Source: Cyanidioschyzon merolae (Eukaryota). Taken from it: a stretch of DNA of 64,000 nt. Under the pieces are notes generated by a model. It saw only the letters and a list, made by a program, of their open reading frames with translations. It searched no databases and was not told the DNA's origin. The position numbers and the translations under genes are program-made. How positions within the stretch are numbered: position 1 is the stretch's first letter; each line of letters opens with the position of its first letter. The stretch lies in the NCBI GenBank assembly GCA_000091205.1, contig AP006494.2; one strand, written 5' to 3'. Of this stretch, positions 2,918-55,800 are shown piece by piece.

Positions 2918-3104
2918 GAAAGTGTTCGAAAGCTTCCCAACAGCAGCTCACAAACGAACGCAGTTGCCTAGCAACAGCAGAGACAGCGGCAGGTGCGCGC
3001 CAGCGAGCAGTTGGGTGCGGGATATATCTGTACAATAAGGACATATCAAATGCAATCATCTGCGGCGCATCCACTGCGACGGATACCGGCTTTCGCCCTG
3101 CAGT
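2918..3104. promoter_or_regulatory. 187 bp head-to-head intergenic region; putative bidirectional promoter between TBL1-like (-) and Myb (+)
   Basis: Divergent start codons at 2917 (- strand) and 3105 (+ strand) with only 187 bp between them. Confidence 0.4.
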
Positions 3105-4469: not shown

Positions 4470-4877
4470 TTCCGACCATTCGATGTCAGACGGCAAGCGG
4501 CGACAGCCGCGACGCCTATCAGGTCTCGAGCAGGGCGTTGCGGTACCGTGTTCTTGGCGTTGCTGGACAGGATTCGGGGACTCTGGTACCAGCGACGACC
4601 AGCTTGCCCTGGTACGCCCGTGCATCGGCGCGCCAGCGGCAGAGGCGAGATCGCGGGGTGGTGACCGTTCTGTGCCTTGATGTGCTGATTTGTACGTTTT
4701 TGTTGATTAATATTCATAAACGTTACGTCTTGTTCCATGTCGACACCAGCAGAAGCACTCGCCAGCACCGGCACCAGCACTAGCCCTGCGTCCTCGTGCG
4801 CTTTCGAACTTGCACGCGTAACTGTCGCTTCGAACGTGTTCATTTGAAAAACCCGACCCCTGCACCGGTATGACGCC

Positions 4878-6689: not shown

Positions 6690-7287
6690 GTCCTTTCCGA
6701 TTGGTATTCGGCAACGCAGACAGACGGTGTATCGATGATGAGACGGGCGTTTATCGGAAAGTGCGCGGAAGAAGCGCAACACACATACCAGCGACGTGGC
6801 AAGATGATGCCTCGCTGCTGCGCGGGTGTATCGATACCGTTTGGTATGCACCATAGATACCCGCGTGCACTGCACGGCGCCTTTGTTCCGCGAATAAGGC
6901 TCCAGTCTAGACACCGTTCCAAAACGTAAAAAGCTCTGAGCGCCGCATGCTGGTATCACCGCGAATATGCCGGTATCTAGGAGCGTCGCTGCGGTATCGG
7001 CTCGTGTGCAACAATGCCGCAGTGCGGTGGTGTGTTGCCGAGTATCCCCCACTATGAACTGCTCGCATACGACACCTGAAAGCGAAGACCACCAATCCGC
7101 CACAACAGGAAAGCGGGTTCATAGCACAATATACCGAGCTCGGGAGCGGGTCTCAGGCTTGTTCGGTGGCGCCCGCGGTGGTGCGCTTCAGCGTCTCCAT
7201 ACATTCGGAGACAGGGCGACGAACCAGCGACCCCTGGAACCAGCAACAGTCCGCAGATGCACCAAGCGACTGCCCGTTGTTTCCACC

Positions 7288-7773
7288 CTATGCCTGCGTA
7301 TGTCGCTCGAGCTGGCGAAGTCGCCGTCGTCTGGTTTTCAGTAGTGGTGCATACTCTGGTTGCTGGCGCTCCTCGAGCCACGCCGGTTGCCAAACCGCAA
7401 GACTAGCCAGCTCCGTCGTGTCACTGCCAGTGCTGGGCTTATCTGCACCGGAGAGGGAACCTTCTGGCAGCAACTCGCTCAGACGGATCGACTGCAGTAG
7501 CTGCGGATCGAAGGCGGCAAGCGGTACACCAGCGTGTGCCTCCAGCTGCAGCGCAACTTCCAGAAGTGAGCCGGCTCGACAGTGCGGACGGAACGGCAGT
7601 GCCAACACCTCCGTGAGATCTGCAACGTGCCCGAGACACGAACTCGGTAGACGAGCGCGCCTTAGCGTCTCAAATGTCTCCCAGAGTCCGTTCTCTTCGA
7701 GGACACGTGAGCGATCGTCGGTAACGGACCCCGCCATGCTGCTCGACTCGACGTCCGACGCCTTCTCCCGCAA
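7288..7773 (-). CDS. Hypothetical small protein (161 aa), unrecognised
   Basis: Balanced amino-acid composition, in contrast to the Ser/Arg/Cys-rich overlapping + strand ORF 7166-7801. Sits in the 1.4 kb gap between the MYST and SF3B3-like genes. No motif recognised. Confidence 0.25.
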   Translation of the reverse strand: MREKASDVESSSMAGSVTDDRSRVLEENGLWETFETLRRARLPSSCLGHVADLTEVLALPFRPHCRAGSLLEVALQLEAHAGVPLAAFDPQLLQSIRLSELLPEGSLSGADKPSTGSDTTELASLAVWQPAWLEERQQPEYAPLLKTRRRRLRQLERHTQA

Positions 7774-8157
7774 GAGTGTTTCCAGCCAAAACTCAGTTTA
7801 GCTCGATTTCTCTATTTTACCGCACAGTCTGGACGGTTCCGAGCTACTCTACTCGAGTTGTGTAGCGTGAAGAGACGGAAGCGCCGCTTCGGGCCCTGCC
7901 GCCCCAGCCCCGTCAACGCGCTTTCGCACTGGCGTCGATGGAGGCGACGTTGCGCGAGCCGCAGGCACCTTCGACAACGCAGTGCCGCTTCTCCAGCGGT
8001 TGGTTGCAGCGACGACCCCTCTCCTGGTACCGGAACAGCGTCAATCGGGAGCAACTTGCGGACAACGAGGCCAGCTCCTGGCCCTAGTCCATTCAAGGCG
8101 TGCTGCACGCGCTTCTGTCTCGTGCATCTCGTGTGTTGTATAGGACGCTGAGGTGCC

Positions 8158-9043
8158 ATGGCGGAGCCGCTGGCTCTGTTTGCGCTGGATCTGCAGCAGC
8201 CAAGCGCCTTGGTAGCCGCAACCTCAGGTTATTTCACGCAAGAGGAACCAACTGGTACGCGGGACTTGGTGCTGGTCCGCCAGAGTGGGAGCTACGGTGC
8301 GACAATTGAGTGCTGGGCTTATAACGCGGAACTGGGAAAACTACAGCGAGTTCAGGCGACGAGTGCCGCTTTCGCCGAGGCTTCCAACGGGGTCACGTTC
8401 GCGCATATTTGGCACGTTGCTCCGGTACGCAGCTGGAGTGGACCTGATCACTTGCTTGTGGTTTCAGACTCTGGCACGCTGAGCTTGCTGAAATGGTGCG
8501 GCTCGGAGGCCGTATCCGCGGGTAGCATTCGTGCTTCATTGAGGCCGTGGTGCGTCGAGCAGGCTGCTGCCGCTGATGCCGATGTCACATACGACATTGG
8601 CTGGAAATGCGTCAGCAGCGCTGTCTTCAGCAAACCGGGAGCACGAGCGAGTCGCCCCGGTGCTTTCCTAGCAATCGATGAACAAAGTCAAGCCTGTGCA
8701 CTGGCTTCGTTGGACGGATCGATCTGTGCATTTGCGCTTCCGCAGCACACCTCGGAAGCCTCGACTGCATCAAAGGCTGGTCATCGATACTCGGGCAAGA
8801 AACGGAATCCAGCGGGAACCGTACTTTCTCGATCAGCGACGTCTGTGCAGACGAGTCGCGAGAATCCTGTCCGTCGTTCATCTCGACGCCGTAAACGCCC
8901 ACTCGGTGCGGACGCAGCCTCCAGCGTATCGAGTGTGGAAGCTGGGGCGATGCACCCCGGCAGTCAGCGTGCGGCTAGCGACAGGCGTGCCTCGCGTCGA
9001 GACAAGCTGACGGAAGGTACCAGCACCCATTTCACTGATGATA

Positions 9044-9080
<37 letters not shown>

Positions 9081-12000
9081 TGATAGTGATGATGATGATG
9101 ATGATGATGATCATGACGATGATACGAATGCCCGGCTCGGAGACGGTGCTCCATCTGGTGACGCAGACGAAGACGGCCATGAGGATCCCGGTCGAACGAC
9201 GAGAGGCTTCTCCGCCCCCATCGAGTGGTCGACCGAAGATCGAATGGCGCTCGGTGTAGGCACATGCTTCGGACTTGTCGCGCTACCGTGGTCTCGTGCA
9301 GAGAACGAGTCGCTGTTTGTCATGCTCATGGATCGCTCACTATCGACAGCAACAGTGGCGCCCGGACCTGATCGTCGCTTGCTGCTCCTGCTGGTCGACC
9401 GTAACGCTCAAACCGTACACGCCAAGGCGATGAGCAGCCCGCTGGACCCCAGTGCATATGGCATCTATGCGCTCTCTGACGGAATGCTTCTCATTGTATC
9501 GCGCTCCACCGTTGAAGTCTGGTGCTTTCGCGGTACCCCGGAAGCGAACGCGAATGAAGAGCCATCGTCAGGGTTTTCGGCAAATGCGGGGACGTTCTCC
9601 TGCCTCGCGAAGCTTCCACACCGAGCGCTGCTTACCAGGAGGTCCTCGACGAGAGACGGCGCTCATGATATCACGGTGCGTAACGCCTTGTTCGACAGCG
9701 CACACCTCCAGGCAAACGGGGAACCTTCGGGGAGCGTTCTCATAACAGCAGCCGCGCTCTGGGAGGCAGCTTGCTCAAGGGAACAGCTTTGCGTGCTCCT
9801 TGGCGACGAAGATGGCTATCTATTCCGGTTGACGATTGTGCTCAGGCCCGTCGAGGACGGCATCCAAAGCGAAGCACTTTCCGTGCGGATGTTGGGACGC
9901 TTCCACGCACCCGTTAGCGCTCTCTGTTTCCTGGGCGGTGATGACATTGCAGCAGCCGCGGTCTTTGTGACCCTGGAGCAAGGGGATCATGCCGTTGTGC
10001 TCCTCGATAGGCCGCAGCTGCAAGCTGGGAAGCGCGACTCGCTTCCGGTCGCATCCGCGCTGCCGGATACGAGCAGCGACGGCACCTCTGCGTCCAGAAC
10101 GGAGCACCTGGCGGGCCTTGACGACGCCATGAGCAACAGCAACAACACGCTGAGCATTGTCGATACGATACCTGGTCACCATCCGGTGATCATGAGTTTG
10201 CTGTTGCGGACGGATCGCTGCTGCCAAGCTGAAGCAGCACAAACTGGCTGCCTGCCGACCTGGCAGTTACTGGGAGCGTCAGCTACCGCTGATCCCAATG
10301 AAACCCCCCTCCGTATCTTCGTACCAATGCGGGATACAGTAGCACTGGCACAGTCACCGGTGGACGGTCGAGCACAGCGGGTCTTCGCCCTGCCGCCGCT
10401 GCTCCAGCGTTCTACCACGGAACCGGCTGCAACGTTGCCGCCTGAATCAGTCTCCGATACCGCAACTGTTGCTCTCCTGGTGCTCTCGTTTACCCAGCAG
10501 ACGCGAGTGTTTCGCTTCCAGTCCCTGGCGCTTCACGAGGAACACACGCTCGGTTTCGAGCACAACACGAGCACCGTTCATGCAGCACTGCTCTGCAGTG
10601 ACTGGTCGCGTAGCGCTTGCTGCTGGGTTCAGGTTCACAGCCATGGGGTGCGCTTGATCGGTGCGGCGTCCTCGGACTCAAGAAGCGCCTCTGTGGTCGA
10701 CGTGTACACCGCCAGCACGCAGCAGCCCATTGTAGCGGCCGATAGCACTCTATCCCAAGTGCTGCTGCTCCTCGCCGACGGTCAACTGGTCTACCTGGTA
10801 GCTTCCGACACCGATTCGGATTCTGACAAGCAATCCAAAGTCAGAGGTAACGCTTCTCCGCCGGCCATGGAGCTCGGATTCGGGCCCCGGAGTGCTTTAC
10901 AAAGCGCTGCGGCGGCTAATGCGCCCACCGAAGCTCCTCCACGAATACCACCGTCGCCAACGAGTCGTGCTGTGGCCTGCTGCCTGGTGCCGCTGGATAA
11001 TCCATCATGGTCCTCGTATTTGGTTTACGTCGAAGCGGGTGCATCTCCAGTGCTGCGCATCTGTCAGGTGCCGGAGCGAGCGACGCACGCTCCCGTGCAG
11101 TGCCTGTACAGCGTGCTTCTGCCGCAGCTGCCAACCGGGATAGCTGCAGTGCACACCGCAGGCACAGCGTCGCTTGTCGACCTCTGGGCAGGCCTCGAAG
11201 ACGGTACCTTGCTGCGCGTTGAGGCGGTAGATGTGGCCGAGCTCCAGATGACAACAGAGCGAGGCACACCACGTCTGCACAGGTATCACCTCGGAGCGGC
11301 AGCCGGTCTGCGCCTGCGTCGCGTGCTGGTGCCACCAGCGCTCGGCACAGAAGCGTTGCTGGTGTTGGGCTCGAGTTCCTGGTTGATACCACTCTCGTCG
11401 TCGTCGTCGTCGTCGTTATGGACGCATCCGTACCCCATTCACGCTGGGCAGCTACTCGATGCCGCCAGTTTTCCCCTGCCGCAGATGTGCTCCACCGTGG
11501 ATCCCGAGACGCACTCAGAGGCTGTTGCGGTGTTTCCAGCGGCAACAGCGATCGCAGCGCTCAGCGAACAGGGTCGCACGCTCGAGTTTCTCAGCTTTGC
11601 CGCCGACGACTCGAGCTCTAACCTGCTCACCATTCGCCCAGTGTCGAAGCCGCAGCCAGCAGATGCTGCTGCATCAGGAACCACTGTGTCACGGAAGGTT
11701 GTCCGCAAACTCTGCTGGATCTTTCCCAATGAACTTGCCGCCATTGCGATAAGTACAGAAGGCGAACGCGGACCCCAGGTTCAGTTGCAGCTGGTACAGG
11801 TCCCCGGATCAGAACGGGTAGCGTCGCAGCACTTGTCATCGAGCGACATGGAGTCGCATGCTTTCTGGCAGCATTTGCGGCTTGACGGAGGTGTGCGTAT
11901 CGCCGGTGCACCCGCCTGGGGCGGTATACGCGTCACCAGTATGATCAGCGTCGATTTACCGTCATTATCATTACCATCGTCAGATACAAAGAACGAACAG

Positions 12001-13194
12001 CAGCTTCACGCTGCCGGTCGAATGCCTGTTGCCCTGCTGGTTGCCGTTGCACCCCCAGCTGCTGAAGCGGAAACCGCGCCGGAAAGCGGCGATGTAGCGC
12101 GGGCGTTCCTCCTGACGTATCTGGTGGAGCGGCAGGCAGCGAGCGATGCGCCCTGGAAACTCGTCCTGACTGAGCGCTTATCGTTTCCCGAATCCATTGG
12201 TGACCTATCTAGGGTTGGGCGGCACCTCGTGGTTGCCCACGGCAATCGTCTGGCACTCTATACGCACACGCGTTGCGGCTGGCGCCCGTTGACCGTGAGT
12301 AAGCGCGCACTTGCCTCTCCTATCGTCGCACTGACCGCTCACGAAGCACTGTGTCGTATTTTCGTCGCTAGTTTACATCACGGCATTAGTTTATTCAAGT
12401 ACTATGTACAAGAGAATCGACTTGTTCTAGTGGCTGAGGACATGCAGCGGCGCTGGATCCATCGGCTCCAGCTACTCGATGCAGATACCGTTGTTGCCGC
12501 TGACAAGTTCGGCTCCATCGCGGTGCTGCGTCTGCCGGTTGAGTCCAGTGCAGCGATTGAGGGTGATCCCAGTTACGGGCGTCTGGCTGAGCGGTACGGA
12601 GCCAGTCCCGAGTCAGCGCGTTCTTTTGTGGCGCGTCTCATGCCCGAATGCTCGGTCCATGTCGGTAGCGTGGTGACGAGTCTCCATGTTTTCGGCTACG
12701 GAGCCGCCACCGATCCAGATGCAACCCCAGCATCCGCACCCCGATCATGGACAGAAGCGGAAGCAATCCTCTACGGTACCGTGAGTGGAGGATTCGGGAT
12801 GTTGATTCCTTTTCGAACGCGAGCCGAATGGGATATTGTGCAGCGCCTCGAACGAGAGCTGCACTTGTTCTGGGCGAAATGCTGTGCACCCGGGCACACA
12901 ATGGATGCAACGCATACCCGGAACCTGCTGCACGCGTCCGTGCTGCGCTTTCAAGGAAGGATCGAACCGACACGCCATGTTGTCAACGGGCACTTGTGTG
13001 GATTATTTGCCCTCTTGGATCCTGAGACACAGCGGAGCATTGCGGCACGTGTGTTGGGTCTCCAGGAACCGTCGACACCAAGCGAAGAACAGCGAGCGCT
13101 GACGCTCCTGCTCAGCACGTTGCATCGACTGTATGCACGGGTGCTGTGGCCGCTTGGACACGAGGTTCAGGCGGCTCCGTTGCATGCGACGTAA
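8158..13194 (+). CDS. SF3B3/DDB1/CPSF160-family (Rse1-like) beta-propeller scaffold protein, highly divergent, 1678 aa
   Basis: N-terminus LALFALDLQQPSALVAATSGYFTQ resembles SF3B3 LYNLTLQRATGISFAIHGNFSG. C-terminus DADTVVAADKFGSIAVLRLP ... LYGTVSGGFGMLIPFRTRAEWD ... VVNGHLCGLF matches SF3B3 DYDTVAGADKFGNICVVRLP ... TLSGGIGILVPFTSHEDHD ... VIDGDLCEQF. The middle carries long low-complexity insertions. Confidence 0.8.
9037..9123 (+). repeat. Coding (GAY)n trinucleotide tract giving a poly-Asp run of about 27 residues inside the SF3B3-like gene
   Basis: gacgacgacgacgacgacgacgacgatgacgatgat... read directly; translated as DDNDDDDDDDDDDDDSDDDDDDDDHDDD. Confidence 0.85.
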
Positions 13195-13864
13195 TGCCGG
13201 TTTCCTAGCGATTTGCATGGACGCGGTCATGCTGGTACCGCGTCAGGCACCTGGTGCACGTCCAGTGCCCAGCATGGATGACGGGATCGCGGCAGTGAAT
13301 CCGACGAAAGCTCTTGGACGGATTTCGATGCAGCCATTCGTCTACGTCGATGGTCCGGCTACTGTCGGAGAATCGCTGGTGGAAATGTTTTGCATTTGCG
13401 CCCGGACGAACCCAGAACAGATCCCTGAACTCTTCTGATAGGCATGGAATCAACGTAATGAATACGCATTCGCTGGGAGCGACTCAAGCATCCTTGCGAA
13501 GCGCTCGGCGTCGAAGCGGGTCCTATCGATTCACGTCCGGAAATGATGCAGCAGCTGCGGTTGGGTATTCTGCGAATTACGATATTAGGCAGCGTGCTGG
13601 CTTGACAGATCCGTGTCCATGGGAACGCGTACCTCAGGTAAATCCAGCCCGCTGCGAACATCAGATACACATAAACTGGACGTGCCGCAAATCGCACAAT
13701 CCGCAAGATCACCTATTCACCCTGAGCGCCTCTAGCATACGGAAAGCACTCGTATCGTCTGGAGCTTGTAACCAACAAGCACTCCAGCAATGAGGTCCAG
13801 CGTACTGCGTCGCGATCGGATTTCGACCGGAGGCTCATTCGCAGAACTTGTCACAGAAACGTCG

Positions 13865-15463: not shown

Positions 15464-16394
15464 TCTGGTTCAGGTCTCCGGGCAAAGCGCGGTTGAGTTT
15501 CCTGTTCCAAGAAAGCGCTGCAGCACCTCGCAAGCGAAACGTGTCGATAAGAGACGGGTACGTTTCTATGCGCGCGGGCGCGGGTGCCTCTCGGAAACCG
15601 CGACAGTGCGAGGCCCCCGGACAAGCCTACCCAGCAAAGAGGACAATCATGGTAGTTGTACTCGGGAATACTGAAGCGTGAAACAGTTTATGGAAGCATT
15701 TGCACAGGGCAAGGTCGCAGCGTGAAACAGGCAATGGAGACACGCGAATAAGGTGGTCTTTCCACTCTGACAACCTCTCTGGTGTTGCACTCCCGCTGCA
15801 CAGTGTAATCGAGGATCGAAATCGCTATGCAAAGAACCACGTAGATCGTAGTCGCATTGCCTGTAGGATAGGTGTATATTCTTTGCTGAAGAATCTAAGC
15901 AAGAATGCATATTTCCCCCTGAGGTCAGAAGTACCGCATTACTGAGGTGGTCGAGGAATACTGAAAGAGAGCGCTATATGCGTTGCGCGCCAAAAACCGA
16001 TATTTTCAAAGTGAGCTTGCGGTCCATGGTAGAAATCGACCCCTTCGTTACCTTGGGGGAAGCAAACACGATTATACTAGACGGGACGGGCGTCTCGGCT
16101 TCCGAAAGGCTTGCTCCTGTGGCCCTGAGAACACTGGGATACAATCGCAAAGTCCTAGTACACTCACGGCCATCTTCTACCGAAATTGCAACGACAGCGT
16201 CCGTGGAACTCAGCGATCCGTATAGAGCACAGGGACGTCGATCCATTTTTTCAGTCGATGAGACTTGCTGCTTCCCCTGATGTCTGGCGACATCCTTCTT
16301 TTCGACAACGTGGCATTTCACCATTCCTGTTGCGTTCAAGGCCTTCCCGATTCCATCGGAGTAGAGCCGCTTTTGGCTCCTCCGCACGCTGCGA

Positions 16395-16700
16395 GGTTCA
16401 TCGTCATCGAGGGAGCGTTTCTGCTATCGGGAAACGCAACGATCCCGCCACTGGGTGAATCGCTGAGACCTTCGGCACACGGCGACACGCCGGGGCATAT
16501 CGCGTCTTTCTTGCGCAGGTCTTTCTCGATCCCAGAAGGTCCTCACCTAAGGGCATAAAGAAGCGCGTTCTTTTTAAAAAACTTTTTAAGAGATGAGCTG
16601 GAGTGCACGCCTCAGAGTGTGGAGATGGAGACAAACTAGCAGGGTGCCTCGGCGATGGAAAAGCGCGGAAACCTGACATAGTAGGAGATAGCGCACAAGG
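16395..16700 (+). repeat. Dispersed repeat copy A (about 70% identical to 52350-52650), intergenic
   Basis: Shares the exact 19-mer acctaagggcataaagaag plus alignable flanks (gatc..ccact..gaa..cgc...acgg; atgca..tgga..) with the copy near 52455. Confidence 0.5.
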
Positions 16701-17216
16701 CACGAGTTCGAGGAATCCTTGCATTCATGAGTTGAACCAGAGCCGATCATCGCATAGAGTTCGTGACGTCTGTGTCCCTGGGGTCTCGGCACCGTCCCGT
16801 CGGGTAAAACACCTTTTCCCGCTTATACGCCCTCCTATTCTTCTTCTAATTCTTCTCTTACTGGTTGGCGAGAAGTGCATTTTTTCCGTTTTTTCCACCA
16901 GCCAGCGACACCGCGCCTCCAGGATCCCCGACTTGCACACCGATACATTTCCCTTGGATTTTTCTTTCTTCAAATGCACCCGATCTGAACAAATCCCGTA
17001 TAACCCTCGGAAAAAAAGCATGTAATGCCATGCACCTAAAAGTGGAACACAATTGATGTGACTGGCTGGAACGCGTCCACCGCCGTAAGGCGTGTCACGC
17101 ATGCAGGCGTCACGTGACACGGAGCGGCGGCGGCGTCGCGGCGCACTCGCTCGCTACCACAGCGTCTTCGTCGGGATGGATACTCCTCAGCGCTGGTGCC
17201 TTGGTTGCTGTGGAAC

Positions 17217-17537: not shown

Positions 17538-18941
17538 TCAAAGGCGCGTCGGCGACTCTTCCGAGGAGCTGAACTCGATCTGACGCCAGAACTTGGGCGT
17601 GGGCGGTGTGCGCGGACCTTTCGTCGTTGTTATCTTGCGTGCCCGTCTGGAGCAGCGCTGAATCTCTCTCTGCATATCTGGGGGATAACTCCCAGCAAGT
17701 GTCGTAAAGAACGCTTTGCACGACGGGCATCGACAAGTGGAATCTTCGTCAGCGGACTTGCGGGCGTTCGGTGACGTGGTAGGTGCAGCTTCGGCGCGTT
17801 GGTAAGTTGTTTGCTGCTGAGCAAGTTCACGCTTCGTGAGCTGTGCGTCCGGTCTGCCAACGTCAGCAGGCTGCGGCTGGTCCTCTGCTGGAATCGCCCT
17901 GGGCACGCGCTCCCCGCCCAGTTCAGTGAAATGCATTTGGGGTTGACGAATTCCGATTGCTCTCGTATTCGCAGTCCCTAATCTAGCTGGCGTCTGATAA
18001 GCAGTAGCGCAGAGCTGGCGCTCAGCTTGTGCAACATGCTCCAAGCATGATCTGGAGCCTGCAGACGCAGATGGAGGATCAGGAGTCGCTCTCGGCGAAC
18101 TATCTGCCATCGGAGCCACCGTAAACCATGTACTGCTTGGCGCTGCGGCTCGGAGCGATGGAAGGGGCGTGTGCTTCGAGACGTCATCACCGTGTGCGGT
18201 AAATTCTCGTAGACATTCTCCATTCATCTCGCCGAATTGCACAGAATCTATTTTGTCGCAGCACAAAGCGTCCGCATCTGGCAGGGAGCATGCCGTCACC
18301 CCGGGTACTCGATACTCACTTTCATACGTTGCCTTCAAGGGATGCACACGTCGCCGGTAACGGCCGGTGCATCCGAACGGCCGTGCTGCGCACTCCAGAG
18401 TCAAACGTTCCTCTTCCTCTTCAGTGCTGTGGCGTACTGGGTCCGCCTCAGACCGACGACATTGTGGCACCGCTGCATCCGTCGCTGCCGCAGCGGAGTC
18501 GCCACGCGTACCACTGCCAGGTGAGTCCGTGCAGGTTATCGAGTGCTGTTCTGAGCAGGCGACTGAACGACGATACTGCCGCTGGCATCCGCGAGACGCT
18601 GCGCTGTAGAGCGGATCTTCGCGCTGCTCCCTCAAAAAGAGCGTCTTTAGGGACTGCACAATAGCATATACACGCTCCAGCTTCGCTTCGATGCACCTCA
18701 ACTTGGTCGCAACCTTCCCGGACGCAATAGTCCGCATCCGTCGAGGGATACCAATCTGCCCGCACTTCCGACGATGCCTAGTAGCTCGCCCGCGCCGGCA
18801 TTCGCGTCCGCAGCATAAACGCTCAGCGTGTCTGGTGCACGTCGAGCCTCGGGCGAACGCAGTGCCCTCAGACAGGGCGTTGGGCTCCCCCGGGGCACTT
18901 TCTCGAGCAAAACCTCTCCCAGTAACCATAGCGTCTTGCAT
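17538..18941 (-). CDS. Hypothetical 467 aa ORF, low complexity, unrecognised; may be spurious
   Basis: Long ORF in a GC-rich gap between RPL36 and DTL. Arg/Cys/Ser-rich with one coiled-like segment (IEAKLERVYAIVQSLKTLF). Overlaps the 5' part of ORF 18691-21291. Confidence 0.25.
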   Translation of the reverse strand: MQDAMVTGRGFARESAPGEPNALSEGTAFARGSTCTRHAERLCCGRECRRGRATRHRRKCGQIGIPRRMRTIASGKVATKLRCIEAKLERVYAIVQSLKTLFLREQREDPLYSAASRGCQRQYRRSVACSEQHSITCTDSPGSGTRGDSAAAATDAAVPQCRRSEADPVRHSTEEEEERLTLECAARPFGCTGRYRRRVHPLKATYESEYRVPGVTACSLPDADALCCDKIDSVQFGEMNGECLREFTAHGDDVSKHTPLPSLRAAAPSSTWFTVAPMADSSPRATPDPPSASAGSRSCLEHVAQAERQLCATAYQTPARLGTANTRAIGIRQPQMHFTELGGERVPRAIPAEDQPQPADVGRPDAQLTKRELAQQQTTYQRAEAAPTTSPNARKSADEDSTCRCPSCKAFFTTLAGSYPPDMQREIQRCSRRARKITTTKGPRTPPTPKFWRQIEFSSSEESPTRL

Positions 18942-19062
18942 GAAGCCCCCGTTACTCCTTGTTTCCAGTCTGAGCTCCTGGTTTGCACCACAAAACAGAG
19001 CGTCTCGAGCACGTCTTTCACCGAGGGAAAGAAAGCGGTACTTGCGTGGACGCTTTGCCGAA

Positions 19063-21291
19063 ATGGCGCGAACGACGCAGCGGCAACGGCGTGACGCGGC
19101 GCGCTGTACGCCTCGCCACTCGGGGGTGTTTTCAGCGTCTATTCAGTCGATGAAACCGGAAATGTCCAAGTCTATCGTGCGTTTGGTGTCCGATCTAGAA
19201 CGGAACTGTAGAGCACTCGATGCTGCACAGGTGACGCAAACGCTACGGCGAAAGCGTGCACGTTCCCTCTGCCGATATGTCGCTGGCAGCGGCTACCTGC
19301 TACCTACACAGGGACTCGAGCTCGCTGAACTGGACGCTACTGCTCACACGTGGCCTGATCGGGACGAGGCGTACGAAGCACGGCGACCGTGGAGGCATCA
19401 GCTGCAACGGCAGGGGTCGGTCCTCTTTGCTGACTACATGGAGCAAGTCGGGTGGGCTCGCCTGCTCGACCAGTGTCTCTGTGGACGCAGTGCCGCCACA
19501 AGCGAGCCACTGGATGCTGAAGCGCGTGCTGTGCGGGAGCGGCGTAGAGTTCGCTGGCTCCGGAATTTGCCGCTGCAGAGCGCTGCTGAGCGGGCTGTCA
19601 GCAGTGACAGCGCGCAGCAGGCAACTGATGCAACGCTGGCGTACGCGCTTGCCTATCACCCGGGCACCGAGGTTGTTGCCGTTGGCGACCAGGGCGGTCG
19701 CGTGCGGCTGATCGACGTAGACCGTACCGTGCAGATCGCATCGGAAGAAAACGGTCCTATTGGAGTGTCCCGAGAGCGAGCTCTGTACGTGGAATCTGAG
19801 AACCTGGTTGCTTTCTGGAATAGTTGCGAGAGCAACCGGGCAGTGTTTGACGTCGCTTGGCTACCGGGGGCGACGACCAACGCATCCGGACTGGCTGCAG
19901 CTTACGCCTCAGGAGTTGTCGATATCGTGGACGTCTCCACGTGCAGCGCATTAGGTCATAAGAATCGTCAGCGAGGCTGGAATCGAGACTGGCGTTATTT
20001 TCAGGATTACGGAGGAAGCGAGGCGCCTTCGCCACCGGTACGCGTTGCACGGCTGTGCGGACACCATGGCGCAGTGCGAAGCATTGCTCCGCTCCCGGAG
20101 GATGGAGGTCGCATCATCAGCACCTGTGGACGAGACGGGAACATCTTCGTCTACGATCTGCGCAGCTGCAGGCGACTTGCGTCGAGCTCCAGTACGGCGC
20201 TTTCCGGAGATAATAAGACACGTAACGCGCTCCTTCCTGTGCGCGCTGTGCAGCTGGGGCATTTTCGGAACCCTGCGGCTCGTCGACTCGTGGAGCGGGG
20301 CGTAGCTTCCCGGGCTGATCTCCTGGCACCCTCACCTGATCGAGCGATCGCAAGCGTTGTCTGGCTTGGACCTGATCCCAGTGCGCTGTTATCGGCAGGT
20401 GCAACGGATGGATTGCTGAAGGTGTGGGATTTGCGTCAAACATGGTCGACTTGTCCGTTGCTCAGCCCTGAATTCGAAGGTGGCTCGCTCAGAGCACACA
20501 GACGCCTCGCCAAACCGGTGACAACGGTGCAGCTTGCCCCAGGTAACGGCATCGCACATGCGCACCTGCAGCACAGCTGTCGGCGCCTTGCGGTGGCCAC
20601 ACTGCGTCCAGGTGCACCCGAACGTGGCACAGTCTTCATTCTGGACCCGTTGCAGCTCGGAAATGCTCGTCTCTCGAATGGAGTTGTACAGAGCATTCAG
20701 GCACCGCTGTGGTCTCATTATACTCGGGTGCGCCCAAGTCCCGATGGTGCGTACGTTGCCTTTGGGTCCGGTTGCGACCTTATTGTTGCGGATCTGGGGA
20801 ACCTGCCCGCAGCACACTGGGAACTTCCAGCGCAAGTCGCTGGCAGCGATGCGTCGCCCGATCGAGACGATAGGTTCGTTCGCATAGCCTGCACCGGGGA
20901 GGTGACCGCCCTGGACTGGAGCTCACGCTGCGACGGACGCATCGCCAGCGTTGCCGACCTGGAGCCCGTGAAGATTACCCAGTGGACCATGGCCGCCGCC
21001 GCCGCCGCCGCCCTGCACGAGCAACGCTCCCCAAGCGTCATGTCGTACGCATCGCGAGGCGAACGTCGGTATCGAAGCCACGCTGATCGTCATGCCTCAG
21101 GCGATGCAGAACCGAGTCGATCAGGGCGAGGAGCACACGACCAAGCGTCTGAACGCGTTCGCCGTCCGATACCCTGCCAGTGTTGCGAGCAAATCGATGT
21201 GGAGCCTGAGCGATTGGTAACCAGGCTTCCATGTCCACGATGCATGCATGAACGCTTCTGCCCAGTACCAAGGGTAAGACGCTCTCGTTAG
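19063..21291 (+). CDS. DTL: CDT2/DTL (denticleless, DCAF2)-like WD40 substrate receptor
   Basis: NRAVFDVAWLPG vs human HWNAVFDLAWVPG; HHGAVRSIAP..STCGRDGNIFVYDLRS vs HQCSLKSVAF..CTGGRDGNIMVWDTRC; LLSAGATDGLLKVWDLRQ vs LVSAGAVDGIIKVWDLRK. The ORF opens at 18691, but the first Met before the propeller that avoids the - strand ORF is at 19063 (19151 is an alternative). Carries a (GCC)n poly-Ala tract near 21000. Confidence 0.8.
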   Translation: MARTTQRQRRDAARCTPRHSGVFSASIQSMKPEMSKSIVRLVSDLERNCRALDAAQVTQTLRRKRARSLCRYVAGSGYLLPTQGLELAELDATAHTWPDRDEAYEARRPWRHQLQRQGSVLFADYMEQVGWARLLDQCLCGRSAATSEPLDAEARAVRERRRVRWLRNLPLQSAAERAVSSDSAQQATDATLAYALAYHPGTEVVAVGDQGGRVRLIDVDRTVQIASEENGPIGVSRERALYVESENLVAFWNSCESNRAVFDVAWLPGATTNASGLAAAYASGVVDIVDVSTCSALGHKNRQRGWNRDWRYFQDYGGSEAPSPPVRVARLCGHHGAVRSIAPLPEDGGRIISTCGRDGNIFVYDLRSCRRLASSSSTALSGDNKTRNALLPVRAVQLGHFRNPAARRLVERGVASRADLLAPSPDRAIASVVWLGPDPSALLSAGATDGLLKVWDLRQTWSTCPLLSPEFEGGSLRAHRRLAKPVTTVQLAPGNGIAHAHLQHSCRRLAVATLRPGAPERGTVFILDPLQLGNARLSNGVVQSIQAPLWSHYTRVRPSPDGAYVAFGSGCDLIVADLGNLPAAHWELPAQVAGSDASPDRDDRFVRIACTGEVTALDWSSRCDGRIASVADLEPVKITQWTMAAAAAAALHEQRSPSVMSYASRGERRYRSHADRHASGDAEPSRSGRGAHDQASERVRRPIPCQCCEQIDVEPERLVTRLPCPRCMHERFCPVPRVRRSR

Positions 21292-24172
21292 CGACCAGCG
21301 CATGTTGGCGTCTTGTCCTCATGAAACGGAGGCATACTCCGAGGCATGCAGACCGGCAGTGGTGCGGGTCGGCGCTCTGGACCCGGGAACCGGCAACGTC
21401 GTCCTGAGCATTGAGCCTCCGTCTACAGACTGATGTCATGAACTGAAGCGGGCACGGTCGGTACTCGTTCGAAACGAGATACTGCAGGATCTGCCACGAG
21501 CACGTGTGAAGCGCTTTTTTCTGGCGCCATCCGAACGATACTCGTTGAGCACATAAGCCGGTGAGTAGTACGCGCCCTAGTTATCTGGAACATGCGTCGT
21601 TCAGCTTGACGAGCTTACGCTGAGGCGCAAGGGCCTGCTTTCGGCGTTGCACTGGTGCGCATCATAAAATGAAGCGCATGCTGCGTTCTTCATCTTTTCG
21701 CACGACGCTTCATCGGAAGCGTGTTGTTGTCATGCGATAACGCATTGCGTAGGTCGAGCGGACGACACTACGCGCGGAGAATGTGGATGATGTCCCGGTG
21801 CTTCGTTGTTTGCGCCTGGAATGCACCACCGGACATCGCTGCTCCGCTGGCACCAGGAGCTCTCGTACAGCACAATGGACACGCTCCCGGGAACCGATTA
21901 TAATCGAGCTATCGGGGATGCTTTGGCAAGTGCAAAACCATGCAGCAATCCATGAAAATCTGTCGCTCGCAGTGATGGAGCCGGGGTCTGCATTCTCAAG
22001 CCAAGACCAGCCTGATCTCTCGTCGTCTTCGTATGCAGATTAGTGCACGGTGTCGCCCGCAAGTGGCTTGGTGACGAGCAGGCCCATTCCTGGACGCCAG
22101 TGCATCAAGGAGTGAAGGATCGGCAGGATCGCGGATCCGTTTGCATTCGATGGCGAAAATGCCTCTCTTTTCGTTTCTTGGTCATCAGAGCAACTTGCCT
22201 GAGCACTGGCGTGTCGGGGATAAACACACAGGAACAACGAATGATGTCATTTCGTAATTGCCTAGCAATTATCCACCACATCCGTACTTGGTGCGATTTA
22301 TAGTGGAATCTAGGCCTGCTGCATTGCTGACTGGTACGCCATTCGTGTCGTACCCTATGCTAGGCTTCTCGTGGCATGTGCGTTTGCCAATGATGTCTTC
22401 ATCAAAAGTCTGTAGCGTTTCAGCCGAATGCCTCCGCGGAGTACGAGACGATTCGTTCGAAACCTGGCTCGATGCATCTTCGCTGAACGCTCCGGAAACA
22501 CGAAACATATCCGGATATTGATGCAGGTGTTCAAGTCTCGGTTCAGATAGCGCTTGCCCGCATTTTCACTGGTACACGAACATCATAGCGAGACTGTGAC
22601 TTTGCACTGCACTGATGGCAGCTGTTCCGTTACCCCACTCGAGACCGTCTCGAGCATGCGTCTCTGTTTCACGCTCTTCTTCCTTACCAGTCAAAGCGCG
22701 CACACTCGTACCCGTGGTGTGTTGTGGTCTTTTTATCGAGTCGTCGAAGGGTGTCACGCAGCATCGACCCCTGCACTTGTCGTCATCGCTCGCGTCGATG
22801 GGCCAGGAGTGCTGCGACTGCGCGCTGAATCATGTCACGTTGCACAGACTGACACAATACAACGCGACTTGTTGATCATTTCTATCTAGAGTTCCTTGAA
22901 AAAGTTGGAGAATGCACGTATCTTGCCTCCAGAGAATCGATGCACTCGTCGACCGGAACGCAGCCACACAGACTCGTGTCAACAATCGTCCGCATCAGCC
23001 GTTTCAACGCTCGTGTCATCTACGGATGAAGCGTTCGAGGAAACTTCCTCTATTCGATACGGTATTCAGAGCGTCGATGAAGGTGTTGACCTGAGTCCAT
23101 GTTAGCCGGGTCCGCTGGTAATATCCAGCCTTCGATCATGCTGACTCCCTCGTCGTGACCCAGATGGACGATGACGGCAATGACGTCTCGGGAGCTTGGA
23201 TCCATGCCCATGACGAACGCTGTCTCTTCATAGACCTTGAACAGGTGAAAATGAGTCGTATTGGTCGACTCTGGCATAGGTTTTATCAAGCCCACGAAGA
23301 CTGATATTGTATCGATCGAGATGGTCCCTGGAAACTTTTCCATTACCTCTAGGTAAACTGAGATATCCCTTGGACACGTTCAGGGGATGCTCTTCGGAAA
23401 AGTTTGTCGAATGCGTTACAGCTGCTCGTAGAGACATTTGTGGCTCGCTGTGGTGCCCATACAGTCCAGTCCATATGTATCTACGGTGATATAATCGACC
23501 ATGTCATGAATTTGAGGGATCAAACACACGAAGCGCTCGTGGAGGCTGAATCCGCTTGGATACGGTGCGGACGTCTGCTTCGCACTCGAGGGCTTTGTTC
23601 AGGAACACAGATTCATAGTGCAGGATGCAAGGAAGATACGCATCACCAGGTTTCAACCAGCGATGACGTACAACGGTCGTCGGTCTCAGCCCGATGGGAA
23701 CTCAATCCGCTTGGACGACGTGCAGCGACACTTGCTCTCGTTCGGAAATCGATTTGGTGCTTGCAACCACATCGCGCTCTTCTGTACTCATAGTCACACA
23801 AAGGATGTCGTCCATCAGTCCCTTGCTTTCAGGGGTCCGTAACGTCTGGGCACGACGACCGCATACTGTGCCTCTTGAAGCGATCGATATTGACCCGCGC
23901 ATGCCTTTGAGGTTTATTCGGTACGTTCGGCAACTGCACAGTAGCTGTTCCGATCGCCGGTATGAAGCAGCGAAGCGGCAAGGTATTCTGAAAAGGCGTG
24001 TGTGCAGACCTCTGACGCTTGGATGAAACCACGTTCCATCTCCTGCACCGAGCATCAACTGGATCGTCGCTAGAGCAATGGATTGGAAACATTGCAGAGG
24101 AATGTGGACAGTCAGTGGCCCTGCTTCCGGAACCCGTACCAACCGCTTGCTTGACGAGATGCGCCAGTACCG

Positions 24173-24544
24173 CTATAGGCAATGTCTCGTCGAACTACGC
24201 TCTTTTCGCTTCGGTGTCATGGAAGCGAACGACTCGTCTATTGATCTGTAAGCGTAACAATACCATTCCACAACAGAGGAGCCGCCTTCCACGGGAGACA
24301 ATAAGGAAGAATACGCTGGTACGAAGAGCAGCTCGATACCAGATTCGGTTGCGCACACCTCGACTGCTTTTGCGCGATCAAAAGCGACAGTGTCCGAAAC
24401 CCGCCCAGAAGCATACCGGAAACAGAAGCCATCCAAGATGACTCCGACGAAGCATGGAGTGTTCAACCACGCTGTCGATTTCGCGATTCCCGGAAAACGA
24501 CACAAAATTATATCGCCGCTAGCGCTGGTGTTTTCGGAATGCAC
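24173..24544 (-). pseudogene. Degenerate DDE_3 (Tc1/mariner-IS630-like) transposase relic
   Basis: IILCRFPGIAKSTAWL...GIELLFVPAYSSLLSPVEG parallels ILxQDNAPxHTAK...ELLFLPPYSPDLNPIE, but the catalytic D/D/E positions are substituted. Only a 123 aa fragment, inside an AT-richer gene-poor island. Confidence 0.4.
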
Positions 24545-25548
24545 GCTTGTTTTCTCTCGCTACGATCATAGTTTTGGAGCGCCCCGGATACCCATATCCA
24601 GGTCTACCGTCCCTGCCGAATCAAGTCTCATCGATTGAGACGAGATCGCGTTCATCCATCCTATCATGCGCGTTCACGTTTCAGAGCGAAATCGATCCAA
24701 CTGCTCTTCAGTGCACGAGGTTTTCCTCTAGAGACGTACGTTTTTCGTTGCCTATGCGCATTGCTTCATCACCAGTCAGATGAACAGCACAGAGACATTA
24801 CATCCCGTAGCGTCTTTGGTACTGCAGCTTAGAGAACATATGGATTGTCACACATTGAAGAAAACACAGGCGTCTAGCGAGAGCTTGATACCTCGTATGC
24901 CAGGTGCTCTACGTCCAGCATAGGACCGACGAGGAGCGCTCTTCGTCCGCCAGTTGACCGGAGAATGACTGACCTTTAGAAACAAGGCCGTTCTTCGTAA
25001 GCTACCAATGACTGCATCAAGTTTCTCAGCGAGCGTTCTCCAATCAAAATGGTGCATTCCTTCTGTTTTGTGTCTGCGAGAAAAACAGACGTGAACGAGC
25101 CTCACGTTCTCGTACTTGCACGCCAGCAGGCTCTGCACAGAGTCCAGCGCTTCTGCAGGCTACCGAACGTGCATGCGTACAGCATCCGAGGCGCTACTCT
25201 GCGGCCACACCAGGCATACGCCGTTCCATCGCCCGTGAACGATCCTGTGGACCAGTCTTGTGCGCGGACACAAGCGGGCGCTGCAGCAGCCCCTGATAGA
25301 TCAAGTCCCGCAACCCCACAGCGGGGCACTCGATACTCCAGTTGATAGCGACTGCAACACGTCAGCGCACTCAAGTCCGCATCGTATCGCGTGCCCCAGC
25401 AGGCAGCGCTGCTTCAAGGTACCAGGGTATTTGGCTCAGGCTGCATTCTCAGGAAAGTCGTCCATCGTCGCTGTGCAGGTGCTGAGCGCCTGCACGGCGA
25501 TGCGACGCCTCCATAGACCGTCGAGCACGCCGCCCAGACTTTCAAGTC

Positions 25549-34325: not shown

Positions 34326-34402
34326 ACGCTTTCGTTCAGCTTGCGCTCGGGCAGCGACGGCTACGATGCGACGCTCGCGGGCGCTGACGAGATCTGGGCG
34401 AT

Positions 34403-51334: not shown

Positions 51335-52348
51335 TGCGGTTGCCGCTCACAGGCTGTATTGGCAAGTTGCGTGAAGAATCCCGGGTACGGTTTTGAGCGC
51401 TTGGCGGCGTTGGGTGGCGTCGTTTCGACATCCCTGCTGCCTAGCTGCAACCAGCGAGGATTATGGGTTTGTTTAGGGACTTTCAGCTCAAGTTTGTTCC
51501 ATTCTCGTCGCGTATCATCGAGCGCTTTTTCGTAGTGCATGGCAGGAGATCGTAATCACCATGCAACGTGTTGTATAGAGAGAAGGGAAATTGAATGAAG
51601 GACATTGATTCTTGACTGAACTGAGCAAGGAGGACTGCGTTCTTCACTCAGGTCAGTCATACTGCAGTACTCTTACGGTTGAGGAACACTGCAAGAAAGA
51701 CGTGTATAGGCTTCAGAGCAAAAACCGATAGTATGAAAGACTGCTCGTGGTCAACGGCAGAAAACGACCCGTTGATTGTCTTTTTCGGAAAGCAAAAGCG
51801 ACAATAGGAGACGCCACGGGGTCTCTATTCCTCACCAGCTTCTTCGAGTTGTTCGAAAACACTGGGATACAGTCGCGAAAAGTCGAGTCCTAGTTTACGC
51901 ATGACTATCTTCCATTAATCAGAAAGTCAACGTTCCTGGGACGTCATTGTCGGTATGCAGCACCGGGACGTCGCTTTGTTTGTTTCAGTGGATGAGACGT
52001 CATTCGGACCAGAGGGTCGGTAATCACACGAGTACTCGCGGAGAGGGAGCCTGTGTTGTGTTCAAGGGAACTGTTAGAGAACGATGACGTCAGGTATTCT
52101 AGGGATGTTGGATTCTTTTGGATGTCTCAGTTTCATTTGTAGAGAAGGCTCATACGATCGCTGTCTCGAATCATTGAGGTCTTTTCCCAGGCACCTGGTG
52201 ACGTCCCTCTATTGGAAAAAATGGTATTTCACCGTTCCCGTGCGTACGAACTGTTGCTGATTCTATCGGGGGTAGAGCTGCTTTTCATTCCAAGGTGCTC
52301 TCCGTAGTTCAGCCCCATCGATAGAGTGTTTTCCATTGTGGACCAAAA

Positions 52349-52813
52349 TTGATCGCTCCACTCGGCGAAACGCAGAAGCGTTCAGCATACGGTAACGCAT
52401 CGGGAGTACACGTTTTCTTTCTTCTGGAAGCCCTTCCCCATCCGGAAAACTCCTTACCTAAGGGCATAAAGAAGTTCGCTCATTTGAAAAATGAAAAAAT
52501 TTACGTGAATGCTATGCATCTGGAAGTCGAGGGTGCTGAAAGTTACTCATCGCCGGTTTTGGCGAAAATTAGGAAAAAAATCCTCTTCACGCCAACCACC
52601 AAGCGAGCAAGAGCAAGTGATGAAGAGCAAGAAGAAAAGAACAAGAGCGGATATGAGCGAGAAAAGGTGTTTGTCCGACGGGACAATGACGCGAATGTAG
52701 TGGCACAGAGGGTGCGAGTTCTAGCAATTCTCGCTTTGGTGCGTTCAACCAGCGGCAATGCACGCGAGGAGTCCATGAATCGTGACTTCAACGCCGCCAT
52801 CAATACCAGATGA
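52349..52813 (+). other. ORF ending in a TnpB/Fanzor RuvC-III-like motif (NRDFNAAINTR); probably a decayed transposon-derived ORF
   Basis: D-x-N-A-A-I-N at the C-terminus resembles the RuvC-III signature of IS605 OrfB/TnpB/Fanzor. The upstream Zn-finger cysteines are absent, so if this is homologous it is a relic. Confidence 0.2.
52350..52650 (+). repeat. Dispersed repeat copy B (see 16395-16700)
   Basis: Contains acctaagggcataaagaag (52454-52473) and alignable flanks to copy A, in the same orientation. Lies in an AT-richer gene-poor island. Confidence 0.5.
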
Positions 52814-55800
52814 TACGCGGTGTTAAAGTCAAGACCCGAGGAGCTGACGAAATCGAACTTTGTATGGCAGCCTCTCAAGGCCACAGTGAGCAAGTAGAAA
52901 CTGAGGCCGATAGCAGGCGCCGGTCAGAAACCACAGGGAAGCGCCTGTGAGTAGGTTTCAGTTTACCCTACGGTGGTGGCATGTTTTCGCTCCGTTAAAC
53001 TTTTGGAAATGCTCAGTAATATCGAACTACAGATCACTATGAGATATCATGAATTCCCTGAAAAAAATCGTCTGCGTGTATGTGCACGGCATTCAAGTCT
53101 TGCTGGAAGGCTGAAACGCGTACCTGACCGGTGCCTTGCTCCCAGCAGGCACCGAATACACGCTCTCCTGGCCACTGATTTTCTGTATCACAAGCCTTCC
53201 AAATTTCAGCACAATCCCCGAAATGAGTACTGAACGAATCTTTCTCAAGTTCGGTCGCCCCAAAGTCGCTGGGCGCTTTGCAAGCACGAGGCGTTCTCGA
53301 TGCCGACCGAGGCGTTCAGGTTCCAATGACGAAAGCGCTCGAGCGTACCGTTGTCAGTGCAAGCACACCATACCAAGCGTCTAAGCGCTTCGATTGTCTC
53401 GCAATATGAATTTCAGTCTTCGAACAGGATACCATATCAGGTATATTGCTCCATTCTGTTCTCTTGTTCTCTATCTGTTTCAGTGAGCACCCGTGCTCAC
53501 TGATGCTTTTATGTTATCCTGAACGCCTCGAAGGGAATCAGACAGAATCGAATCCAGGACCTGTTCTACGACCTCGTCGACGGTACCGCATTCCAGCCTT
53601 TTCGCACTGCAACACGTCCAGCCCTGTGGGCTACCATCAAACGGAACGATTCGTCGGTCACTTGGTTTTCCAACGCATCATGCTCGTTGGCGAATGCATG
53701 CTTTCTGTCTCCATATAACAGATAGCGTTGGCGACCCCAGCGCTCTCCCAGGTATTCCAGCCAAAGATCGTCTCCGAGCGTCCTCTGGACGCACAAGTAC
53801 TCTCTAGACGAAGCGTACATAGCAATTCGCTCTGCGCAGTAGGGTCCACGGAGCGTCGGCAAGACTCTGTTCAAAGTCATTCCCCTTGCTTGTATGCCTC
53901 CTGGCGCCGATTATGTGCGAATGTCGTAAATATCGAGCCCAGGAAAAGTTGAGCAGCTTCATCTGCTTCTCGTTTACATCGTTGCCTGCCTCCGTGCCCC
54001 AGCCCTGGCGATATGGCGACAGCTGTGATGCCCGTCAACCCGAGATCTACACCCTCGTCGAAGTCTCTCTTGTCGTCTACCTTTAGCGGTTGATCATGAC
54101 TTTCGTTGCTCGACTCAGACCTGATTTTTTAGAGACTGAATGCAGTATGACGTTCCGTCAGTCTCCATCGTTTCTGCGAGCCTCTTTTCATTTCTGCCAT
54201 GTAATCGAGCAGCGTTGAACGAGCGCCGTCAAAGCTCCTCGTAAAGTTTTTCGGATGCTTCACGCTTTGTCGCAGAGGGACGATCTTGCTTCGCAGTGTG
54301 CTTTACTCGGCGAGGTGGCAGGGTTGTGGTCACTCTACTCCATAATCGATCTTTGTCTCCTGGAAAAATACGCACTGAGTGGAACGTTGGATTGGAACCT
54401 GGCTCGTCTATCTGTGTATTCACGTATATGGACAAATCCTCAAATCCTTGTTCGTAACCTTCCCCGTCGTGAACACGCCCAAGGATCGAAGCGCCTTATT
54501 CGGTACCCTCCCGCGCACCATGAGCAGTAGCGCAACACAGCATATTAAGGCTAATCGATGAAGAGAACGAAATGTCGAAGAAATTCCGTGTCATGGTTGC
54601 GAACGGCTCGTGAATTCAACTGTGAGCTCTAAAACAGAGTTCGGCAACAGAGCGCATACCTTCGACTGGATGCAAACTGGGCGAATGTGTCTGCGCGAAG
54701 AGCAGCTCACTGCCAGTATGCGCTGCATACGCCATGAGCGCTTTTAGTCATGGAACGCCACGTTGTCCAGAATAAGGGCGGAGGAGTGTGCGAAGCGGAA
54801 GTCACAAAGTGTGCCTCGACGAAACATGCGGTTTTGAACGATCCTATCTATTTGGCGACTGGCAGATGATCACAGACTGGCATCGCCGCTGGCGCGGATG
54901 TTGTCGGATACTCGCTTGTTGCTTCTTCACGATCAGCAGCCTTCCCTTCTTTCAATACACATATTGAGGTCTGCTTTTTCCCCAGAATGAATTCTCATTG
55001 AATGAGACCATCATTCGTCTTATGAGTTATAAGCGGTCGCAGATCAGTGTGTGAAATCTGTAGTGCATTTGCCAGCGCACGACCGTGTCGCAATAGAGGC
55101 GAGCATTTTTCTTCGTCCGTCGATGTCTCTTCTTCACCGCTCGAGTTAACGGTACGGACACTGCATATTCTGCGGCTGCTCTGGTTGTAATTGTTCGAGA
55201 ACACATGCATTGGAATGGATAGAGGACAAGGCAGTAATGTTCATGGAGTTTAACTTGTTCTTTCGCGGATACACGACGTTTGGAACGAGAACCATCAGAG
55301 GGGCGCTTCAACCACTTGCTGACCGCACAATGACTGGCCGCAACGAGTAATACCGTTTTTCGCGTGCCTGCAACGACAGGATCAGGTCTTTCCGCTGACT
55401 TTCTCCAATCCATTGGATATTTTTTCTGCTGAATATTTGCCAGGAAACCAAACCAAAACAAAAAGCACATTCTTATTCACGTGTTCGAGAATGCACTCCT
55501 CTAAGCATACTGCTTTAGCGAACAGTGGTTCAAGCACTGCTGCTGAGCTTGGTACTTGCAGCAGCGAAAAGGCGTTATTTACCTGTAAAGTGCGTTCGAT
55601 TCGAAGGAGGCACGAGGCTTGCACAAGCGCGTCCAGTGCGGATTCAGCGAGTCTGTTCAGATTCGGTGCATCGGTCACTAATCGAAACCATAGCTTTGTC
55701 CTTCGGTCAGGCTCGCGTGAGCGCAGAGCGCGAGGACCGCTTCGGCCTGAAAGGCTGGATCTAGCGGCCCTCTACGAGCGTCCACAACAACGACTCAGTT

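Follow-up and report, generated by a model that had tools for sequence, protein, structure and literature searches.

What are the two diverged, mutually similar stretches of intergenic DNA that lie about 36 kb apart on one chromosome of Cyanidioschyzon merolae, and do they serve the cell in any way? C. merolae is the textbook example of a minimal eukaryotic genome, with a reported transposon content of 0.7%. The window analysed here is a stretch of 64,000 nt from a chromosome of 859,119 bp. A first description made from the letters alone (the sequence-only reading) had placed copy A at about 16395-16700 and copy B at about 52350-52650, in the same orientation, and had proposed either an old non-autonomous element (MITE- or SINE-like, or a transposon terminus) or a shared regulatory module. 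Here, we argue that copies A and B represent what is best preserved of two copies of an IS630-Tc1-mariner DNA transposon that died long ago, its ~300-aa transposase having a DDE_3 domain with a DD34E triad and a probable N-terminal HTH domain. Based on the sequence comparisons set out below, we give this reading a probability of roughly 85%. As far as can be inferred, these are transposon relics without present function that have undergone neutral decay.

The similarity itself is well founded. The two copies share an exact 19-mer (ACCTAAGGGCATAAAGAAG) on the plus strand at 16545-16563 and 52456-52474, which occurs at no other site within the window with up to three mismatches tolerated (chance expectation 0). 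Outside the 19-mer, the flanks are 67.7% identical over 300 bp (16284-16580 versus 52195-52491; blastn E=4e-19, and E=8e-36 under tuned scoring). Both copies are intergenic in the gene and ORF context of the window. Copy A occupies the 1.77 kb divergent spacer between NARFL (BAM80717, 13865-15442, minus strand) and RPL36 (BAM80718, 17217-17513, plus strand). Copy B lies in a gene-poor island of 4.9 kb with a GC content of 0.49-0.51 and without long ORFs, directly upstream of the gene for the oxysterol-binding protein OSBP (BAM80732, minus strand). All three gene identities are exact protein matches to C. merolae 10D.

Some other features of the window are recorded here in their own right. A tandem array of ~6-7 copies of a 71-72 bp unit, some of them 95-99% identical, lies at 33878-34359, directly upstream of a photolyase-like ORF (start 34403). 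Two neighbouring 70-nt direct repeats (38426-38574; 89% identical, 79 bp apart) are found just upstream of a 693-aa ORF at 38662. The longest ORFs of the 467-aa gene (17538-18941, minus strand) and the WD40 gene (18691-21291, plus strand) have ~250 bp in common at their 5′ ends. On orthologous contigs, gene callers give the WD40 protein a later start (711-713 aa), and the true start of the gene is probably near 19150.

The limits of ~300 bp first given to the repeat proved far too narrow. Homology covers 15720-16978 at A and 51530-53000 at B, which we designate the left arm, and continues in a right arm at 22215-25155 (A) and 53011-55518 (B). Over its full length of 4.0 kb, the B island (51530-55518) is thus collinear with a pair of blocks on the A side, 15720-16978 and 22215-25155. 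Direct comparison of the left arms by tuned blastn and nhmmer aligns 15810-16978 with 51544-52801, and the start at 15720 is obtained via a third copy. In B the arms abut at 53000/53011, while on the A side they are 5.2 kb apart, with RPL36, the 467-aa ORF and the WD40 gene in between. A-B identity is 54-68% across the segments and 65-68% in the left arm. The nhmmer segments are as follows:

B 51544-52000 with A 15810-16266, direct
B 52183-52779 with A 16272-16767, direct
B 52479-52801 with A 16978-16684, inverted
B 53013-54298 with A 22228-23452, direct
B 54584-55518 with A 24210-25155, direct

Within these segments, the following features can be distinguished (R1 and R2 denote the transposase-1 and transposase-2 pseudogenes, P0042 an intact relative described below, and locus C the third copy):

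15720..16978, plus strand: left arm A, with the transposase-1 relic and segment S (nhmmer versus B, E=7e-39 and 4e-32; versus the third copy, E=1e-60 and 2e-46, starting at 15720)
15924..16558, plus strand: transposase-1 pseudogene, copy A (R1-A; tblastn with P0042, E=6e-9 and 2e-6)
16679..16978, minus strand: segment S, copy A, ~300 bp of non-coding DNA on the 3′ side, in opposite orientation to copies B and C
22215..23452, plus strand: Rmid, part 1 of right arm A, 1.25 kb, shared and non-coding (nhmmer versus B 53013-54298, E~1e-47)
24210..25155, minus strand: transposase-2 pseudogene, copy A (R2-A; nhmmer versus B 54584-55518, E=1e-63)
51530..53000, plus strand: left arm B, with the transposase-1 relic, segment S and a ~200 bp linker (nhmmer versus locus C, E=5e-173)
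51628..52469, plus strand: transposase-1 pseudogene, copy B (R1-B; P0042 aa 21-295, tblastn E=1e-16)
53011..54298, plus strand: Rmid, part 1 of right arm B (nhmmer)
54562..55518, minus strand: transposase-2 pseudogene, copy B (R2-B; P0042 aa 2-290 over 55419-54562, tblastn E=6e-17)

The common orientation ascribed to the two copies applies to the 19-mer and to most of the left arm, but not to segment S, which is inverted between them: 16679-16978 matches 52803-52479 on the minus strand (nhmmer E=3e-20). Segment S also matches directly (16688-16769 versus 52700-52781, nhmmer). This match in two orientations results from an imperfect palindrome of ~85 bp, seen by folding at an end of segment S in each of the three left arms (16685-16770, 52700-52790 and ~9440-9540 of the locus C contig L029). 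Rmid shows no frame preference and no coding remnant, and its B homologue has no Pfam match, long masked frames included; the long masked frames of R2 likewise gave none. It makes up about one third of the B unit and has no recognisable origin by Pfam search or frame comparison.

Each arm carries the remains of a transposase gene. The window contains four of these, arranged as two convergent pairs of transposase-1 (plus strand) and transposase-2 (minus strand); a six-frame profile search finds exactly these four, and every one is broken by stops, frameshifts or deletions. The idea of an old, diverged, dispersed repeat of transposon origin is thereby borne out. A mere transposon terminus describes it poorly: the 300 bp noted first are the 3′ half of a decayed transposase gene, in a frame that differs from the ORFs that had been named. 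Protein conservation is indeed absent from those two ORFs (16603-17025 and 52349-52813), but is present in other frames, in the form of the transposase relic. Six-frame coding comparison of A and B yields matches scattered over many frames and weaker than the DNA-level scores, which is why the sequence-only reading saw none. No one frame has survived that would connect A with B directly; the coding origin became apparent through profiles only.

A profile built from the four frame-stitched relic cores matches P0042, an intact 301-aa protein with PF01498 (HTH_Tnp_Tc3_2, marked 'faint') and PF13358, with E=8e-28 against 5.8e9 database sequences. Conversely, P0042 spans aa 1-295 across the four relics (tblastn E 1e-17 to 6e-9). 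R1-A aligns to it in two parts, 15924-16265 (aa 29-143) and 16286-16543 (aa 212-295), having suffered a deletion of ~68 codons (aa 144-211) and a frameshift, and shows the motifs SVDET, FDNVAFHH and IVIEG. The relic profile also recovers P0043, the orthologous ORF of R1-A. R1-B aligns to P0042 over 51628-52454, with internal stops and a frameshift, and matches Pfam DDE_3 (E=6e-4) and NCBIfam IS630 (E=4.5e-3). R2-A corresponds to P0042 aa 1-277 over 25057-24215 (tblastn E=1e-17; DDE_3 E=3e-3, IS630 E=4e-4), and R2-B matches DDE_3 at E=0.012, with an LDNVAFH motif on the minus strand.

Several lines of evidence from these relics converge on the same family. DDE_3 (PF13358) and the IS630 model (NF033545, E from 4e-4 to 2e-2 over three relic fragments) are the top match for three of the four relic fragments, in the same C-terminal part of the profile, with single relics scoring 16-20 bits, below the Pfam gathering score of 28.6. 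All four segments share the motif order DE(T/S), DN(V)AFH, P..S(P)...P(I/V)E. The catalytic triad (D141, D218 and E253) does not vary among 17 intact relatives, and 34 residues separate its second D from its E; DD34E is the signature of Tc1/IS630-type elements. R1-A and R2-A have catalytic motifs and spacing as in the intact relatives, while catalytic residues are mutated in R1-B (D to E and E to D) and in R2-B (first D to N). Alignment of the relics to P0042 begins at aa 1-29, and Pfam matches no HTH family directly in them. The relic profile has no match among solved structures.

In the transposase frame, the 19-mer reads as the last codons plus the stop, ..P(H/Y)LRA-stop, with the stop codons of R1-A (16556-16558) and R1-B (52467-52469) both inside it, and the C-termini of R1-A, R1-B and P0042 align. 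In a three-copy alignment, the best-conserved 22-mer covers the 19-mer block, with 18 of 22 positions invariant. Given the length and identity of the A-B alignment, an identity run of at least 19 has P~0.1, so the 19-mer is not special in itself. We infer that it is no distinct motif but the longest stretch to have stayed identical, located where the putative transposase frame ends.

Two other interpretations of the coding and terminal sequences were considered and set aside. The string NRDFNAAINTR at 52778-52810 resembles a RuvC-III motif, as found in TnpB/Fanzor (IS605-type OrfB) proteins. However, no frame has an OrfB or TnpB Pfam match and the string has no counterpart in copy A, and we judge the likeness to be a chance match. 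Long terminal inverted repeats (TIRs) were suggested by a weak inverted similarity between R1 and R2, which is explained by the two oppositely oriented transposase relics. TIRs and target-site duplications, by which the element was to be delimited, were not recovered at the arm ends: local alignments of these ends with the reverse-complemented opposite ends give matches of 8-23 bp, at chance level, and no TA duplications. Short TIRs are not expected to survive at 65% identity between copies.

Metagenome contigs aside, the closest intact relatives of the transposase that were retrieved lie on viral contigs. An alignment-based probe of the motifs of the intact relatives retrieves seven IMG/VR loci (L045-L051), with 29-49% identity to P0042, several of them from giant-virus MAGs, including GVMAG-S-1092401-23 and GVMAG-M-3300023179-111. 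A conserved-motif probe of ~185,000 prokaryotic species genomes yields no relative, and single-sequence probes of the prokaryotic and viral collections give no match. The DDE_3 transposases of giant-virus MAGs resemble the intact relatives of the relics in their shared conserved motifs; unlike the viral copies, those of C. merolae are chromosomal relics, with no viral genes flanking them in the window. Compared with IS630-Tc1-mariner DD34E elements in general, the likeness extends to the ~300-aa transposase, a probable N-terminal HTH (PF01498 in the intact relative), DDE_3, the D...D(34)E triad, the motifs DE(T/S), DNxxFH and PxYSPxxNP(I/V)E, and a left arm of ~1.2 kb. The differences from a typical element are the lack of recoverable TIRs and TA duplications, the death of all local copies, the extra 1.25 kb of Rmid on the right arm, and a diverged convergent pair at three loci.

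The further genomic copies anticipated by the sequence-only reading exist, in the form of a third locus on another chromosome. The relic profile retrieves P0044, an ORF from another left-arm copy, and the arms occur a third time on the contigs with this ORF (L027, L028 and the 64.8 kb contig behind L029), at what is here called locus C. Its features in L029 are:

8206-9746: left arm (versus B, E=5e-173)
10001-11911: oligoendopeptidase F (M3B peptidase), followed by a 160-aa ORF
12724-13334: Rmid, first ~600 bp

The locus C oligoendopeptidase F clusters with C. merolae BAM82523, on the chromosome of 1,253,087 bp, which places this locus on a different chromosome from A and B. The arm junction of locus C is the same point at which the arms abut in B (53000/53011). 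Left-arm identities are 65% (A-B), 69% (A-C) and 67% (B-C), essentially a star. Zero, two or three unrelated genes lie between the convergent arms in B, C and the A side, respectively. Oligoendopeptidase F is mainly a bacterial protein family, and the gene at locus C could be horizontally acquired, sitting between transposon relics.

A degenerate 22-mer covering all three variants was used to scan JGI metagenome contigs and finds nine stretches, all of them orthologues of A, B or C. In these contigs and in the ~100 kb of C. merolae sequence searched directly, the left-arm subfamily was found at three loci only. In the vicinity of locus C, L029 holds two further, heavily decayed members of this transposase family (7537-7830 and 17865-18122, both on the minus strand), in too poor a state for assignment to transposase-1 or transposase-2. 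The wider transposase family thus has more copies than the three left arms.

Simple Tc1-type transposition would not normally pair the same two arms repeatedly around one set of host genes after another. We propose an account based on a composite unit and a local hop. One old transposition burst would have spread a unit of two adjacent elements (the B form) to three sites, after which one element would have hopped a few kilobases locally at two of these sites, parting the arms. All copies would afterwards have decayed neutrally.

Comparison with related genomes separates what is old in this region from what was inserted. In Cyanidiococcus yangmingshanensis and another related lineage, the order NARFL-RPL36-467aa-WD40-NDK is kept, and the spacers that hold the arms in the window are shorter. 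The WD40-NDK spacer measures 4302 bp here versus ~360 bp in the two sister lineages, the NARFL-RPL36 spacer 1.77 kb versus 0.98-1.34 kb, and the OSBP-Yippee-like spacer ~4.9 kb versus 0.55-0.85 kb, an excess that matches the 4.0 kb B element. Neither tblastn nor profile search detects a relic at the sister loci. The arrangement of the window recurs throughout the environmental Cyanidioschyzon strains (>99% identical). Among ~13 strains, segregating sites per site amount to 0.016-0.025 for the arms, compared with 0.011-0.034 for intergenic DNA elsewhere and 0.002-0.011 for coding sequence. The arms thus give no sign of present constraint, their polymorphism being like that of other intergenic DNA.

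Three JGI contigs depart from the window near the A-side genes. L001 (from 3379) and L002 (from 519) match the window at 99.6-99.7% from 17180-17197, 20-40 bp upstream of the RPL36 start codon, and carry different, unrelated sequences upstream of that point. A synteny break by structural variation was rejected here because the upstream sequences are unrelated to each other; from their sequence, both contigs are probably chimeric, transcript-derived assemblies that mark the 5′ end of RPL36. In L007 (JGI Ga0506597_000011, 1-11697), the NARFL protein is identical to that of other strains, and an AAA ATPase, PRP3 and a peptidase M24 lie downstream of NARFL, where the window has a CPSF_A-like gene instead. 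L007 represents either a rearranged strain or a chimeric assembly.

How do these relics relate to the repeats already described in this genome? Nozaki et al. 2007 (PMC1955436) report 26 non-LTR retrotransposons, eight class II elements that weakly resemble transposases of bacteria, and 253 dispersed copies of a repeat with a mean length of 3.2 kb, making up ~5% of the genome and carrying a truncated ORF weakly like WSV486 of WSSV (PMC1955436). The present relics may belong to one of these published classes. They are alike in genome, in the 3-4 kb size class, in their dispersed intergenic distribution and in having truncated ORFs; they differ in that family assignment in the earlier work is limited to weak BLASTX matches, and in that the left-arm subfamily has three detectable loci. 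That the arms belong to the 253-copy repeat of ~3.2 kb in particular, a proposal compatible with a transposon origin, seems possible to us, if still doubtful. A repeat of this abundance is predicted about once per 65 kb, and its density and size resemble what is seen here with the B island (4.0 kb) and the A-side right arm (2.9 kb); the eight class II elements of the same survey offer a second published group with transposase similarity (PMC1955436). Against it stand the restriction of the left-arm subfamily to three loci in the 22-mer metagenome scan, and the status of wsv486 as an uncharacterised ORF with no transposase link or function stated in the literature. Furthermore, no coding sequence is annotated between NARFL and RPL36, which have consecutive accessions. 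An assignment of C. merolae repeats to DD34E elements, to HTH plus DDE_3 transposases or to relatives from giant viruses was not found in the literature searched.

A plain segmental duplication, in which a block of ~9 kb (15.7-25.2 kb) gave rise to a second, equally oriented copy 36 kb along the chromosome, followed by deletion of the copies of RPL36, the 467-aa ORF and the WD40 gene, would make the relics passengers. We consider this unlikely. It would account for several collinear segments in the same orientation, including the non-transposase Rmid, for a divergence that is alike in all segments (54-68%), for the location of A and B on one chromosome and one strand, and for a possible TCGAA microhomology at the arm junction. 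On the other hand, such a duplication predicts that A and B are closest to each other, while the three left arms are equidistant. The third copy, on another chromosome and with unrelated genes between its arms, has the junction point unchanged. In addition, the outer limits of homology lie ~25-100 bp upstream of the two transposase starts, which fits the ends of elements better than those of a duplicated block.

Alternatively, the convergent pair of arms could be a functional composite vehicle of giant-virus-related Tc1/IS630 type that inserts around, or captures, host genes, a reading we regard as improbable. Inverted elements that bracket unrelated genes are also known from bacterial composite transposons (Tn5, Tn10) and from alternative or local transposition of paired eukaryotic cut-and-paste elements (Ac/Ds). 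Unlike in those systems, the genes bracketed on the A side are in their ancestral syntenic position and were thus not carried in as cargo, and neither ends nor duplications survive that would attest to movement of the pair as one unit.

The shared regulatory module of the sequence-only reading, that is, a conserved functional non-coding element (promoter, enhancer or ncRNA) upstream of NARFL and OSBP, finds some encouragement in the like orientation of both left arms, each of which starts 250-370 bp upstream of a gene on the minus strand, and in the 19-mer block as their best-conserved stretch. Nevertheless, we hold it to be very improbable. The arms are missing from the sister-genus spacers next to the same genes, their strain polymorphism equals that of other intergenic DNA, and the copy at locus C is not upstream of a comparable gene. 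The conserved stretch reads as the C-terminus of a transposase, and scans of the whole window for tRNA genes and for Rfam families at gathering score are empty. A short non-autonomous element (MITE or SINE), as suggested by a diverged, dispersed, intergenic repeat with named ORFs that are not conserved, is next to negligible in the face of a unit of 1.2-4 kb with a near full-length transposase remnant, three loci only in the 22-mer metagenome scan, the lack of recoverable TIRs, of a tRNA-like head and of an Rfam SINE match, and a survey that found no MITEs in C. merolae (PMC3964958).

Read as a dead IS630-Tc1-mariner transposon, the repeat is ordinary decayed mobile DNA with no functional sign, and its odd part is the recurrent pairing of arms around different genes. 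If the composite-vehicle reading were true, the pairs would be a eukaryotic analogue of bacterial composite transposons and might have served Cyanidiales as a means of relocating genes or gaining them horizontally. As decayed Tc1/IS630-type transposons, the AT-richer, gene-poor islands explain part of the extra intergenic DNA that sets C. merolae (16.5 Mb) apart from its more compact relatives, and the relics date a past burst of DNA-transposon activity. Finally, they would provide a concrete family, with giant-virus-associated relatives, for repeats that were earlier known by weak BLASTX matches alone.
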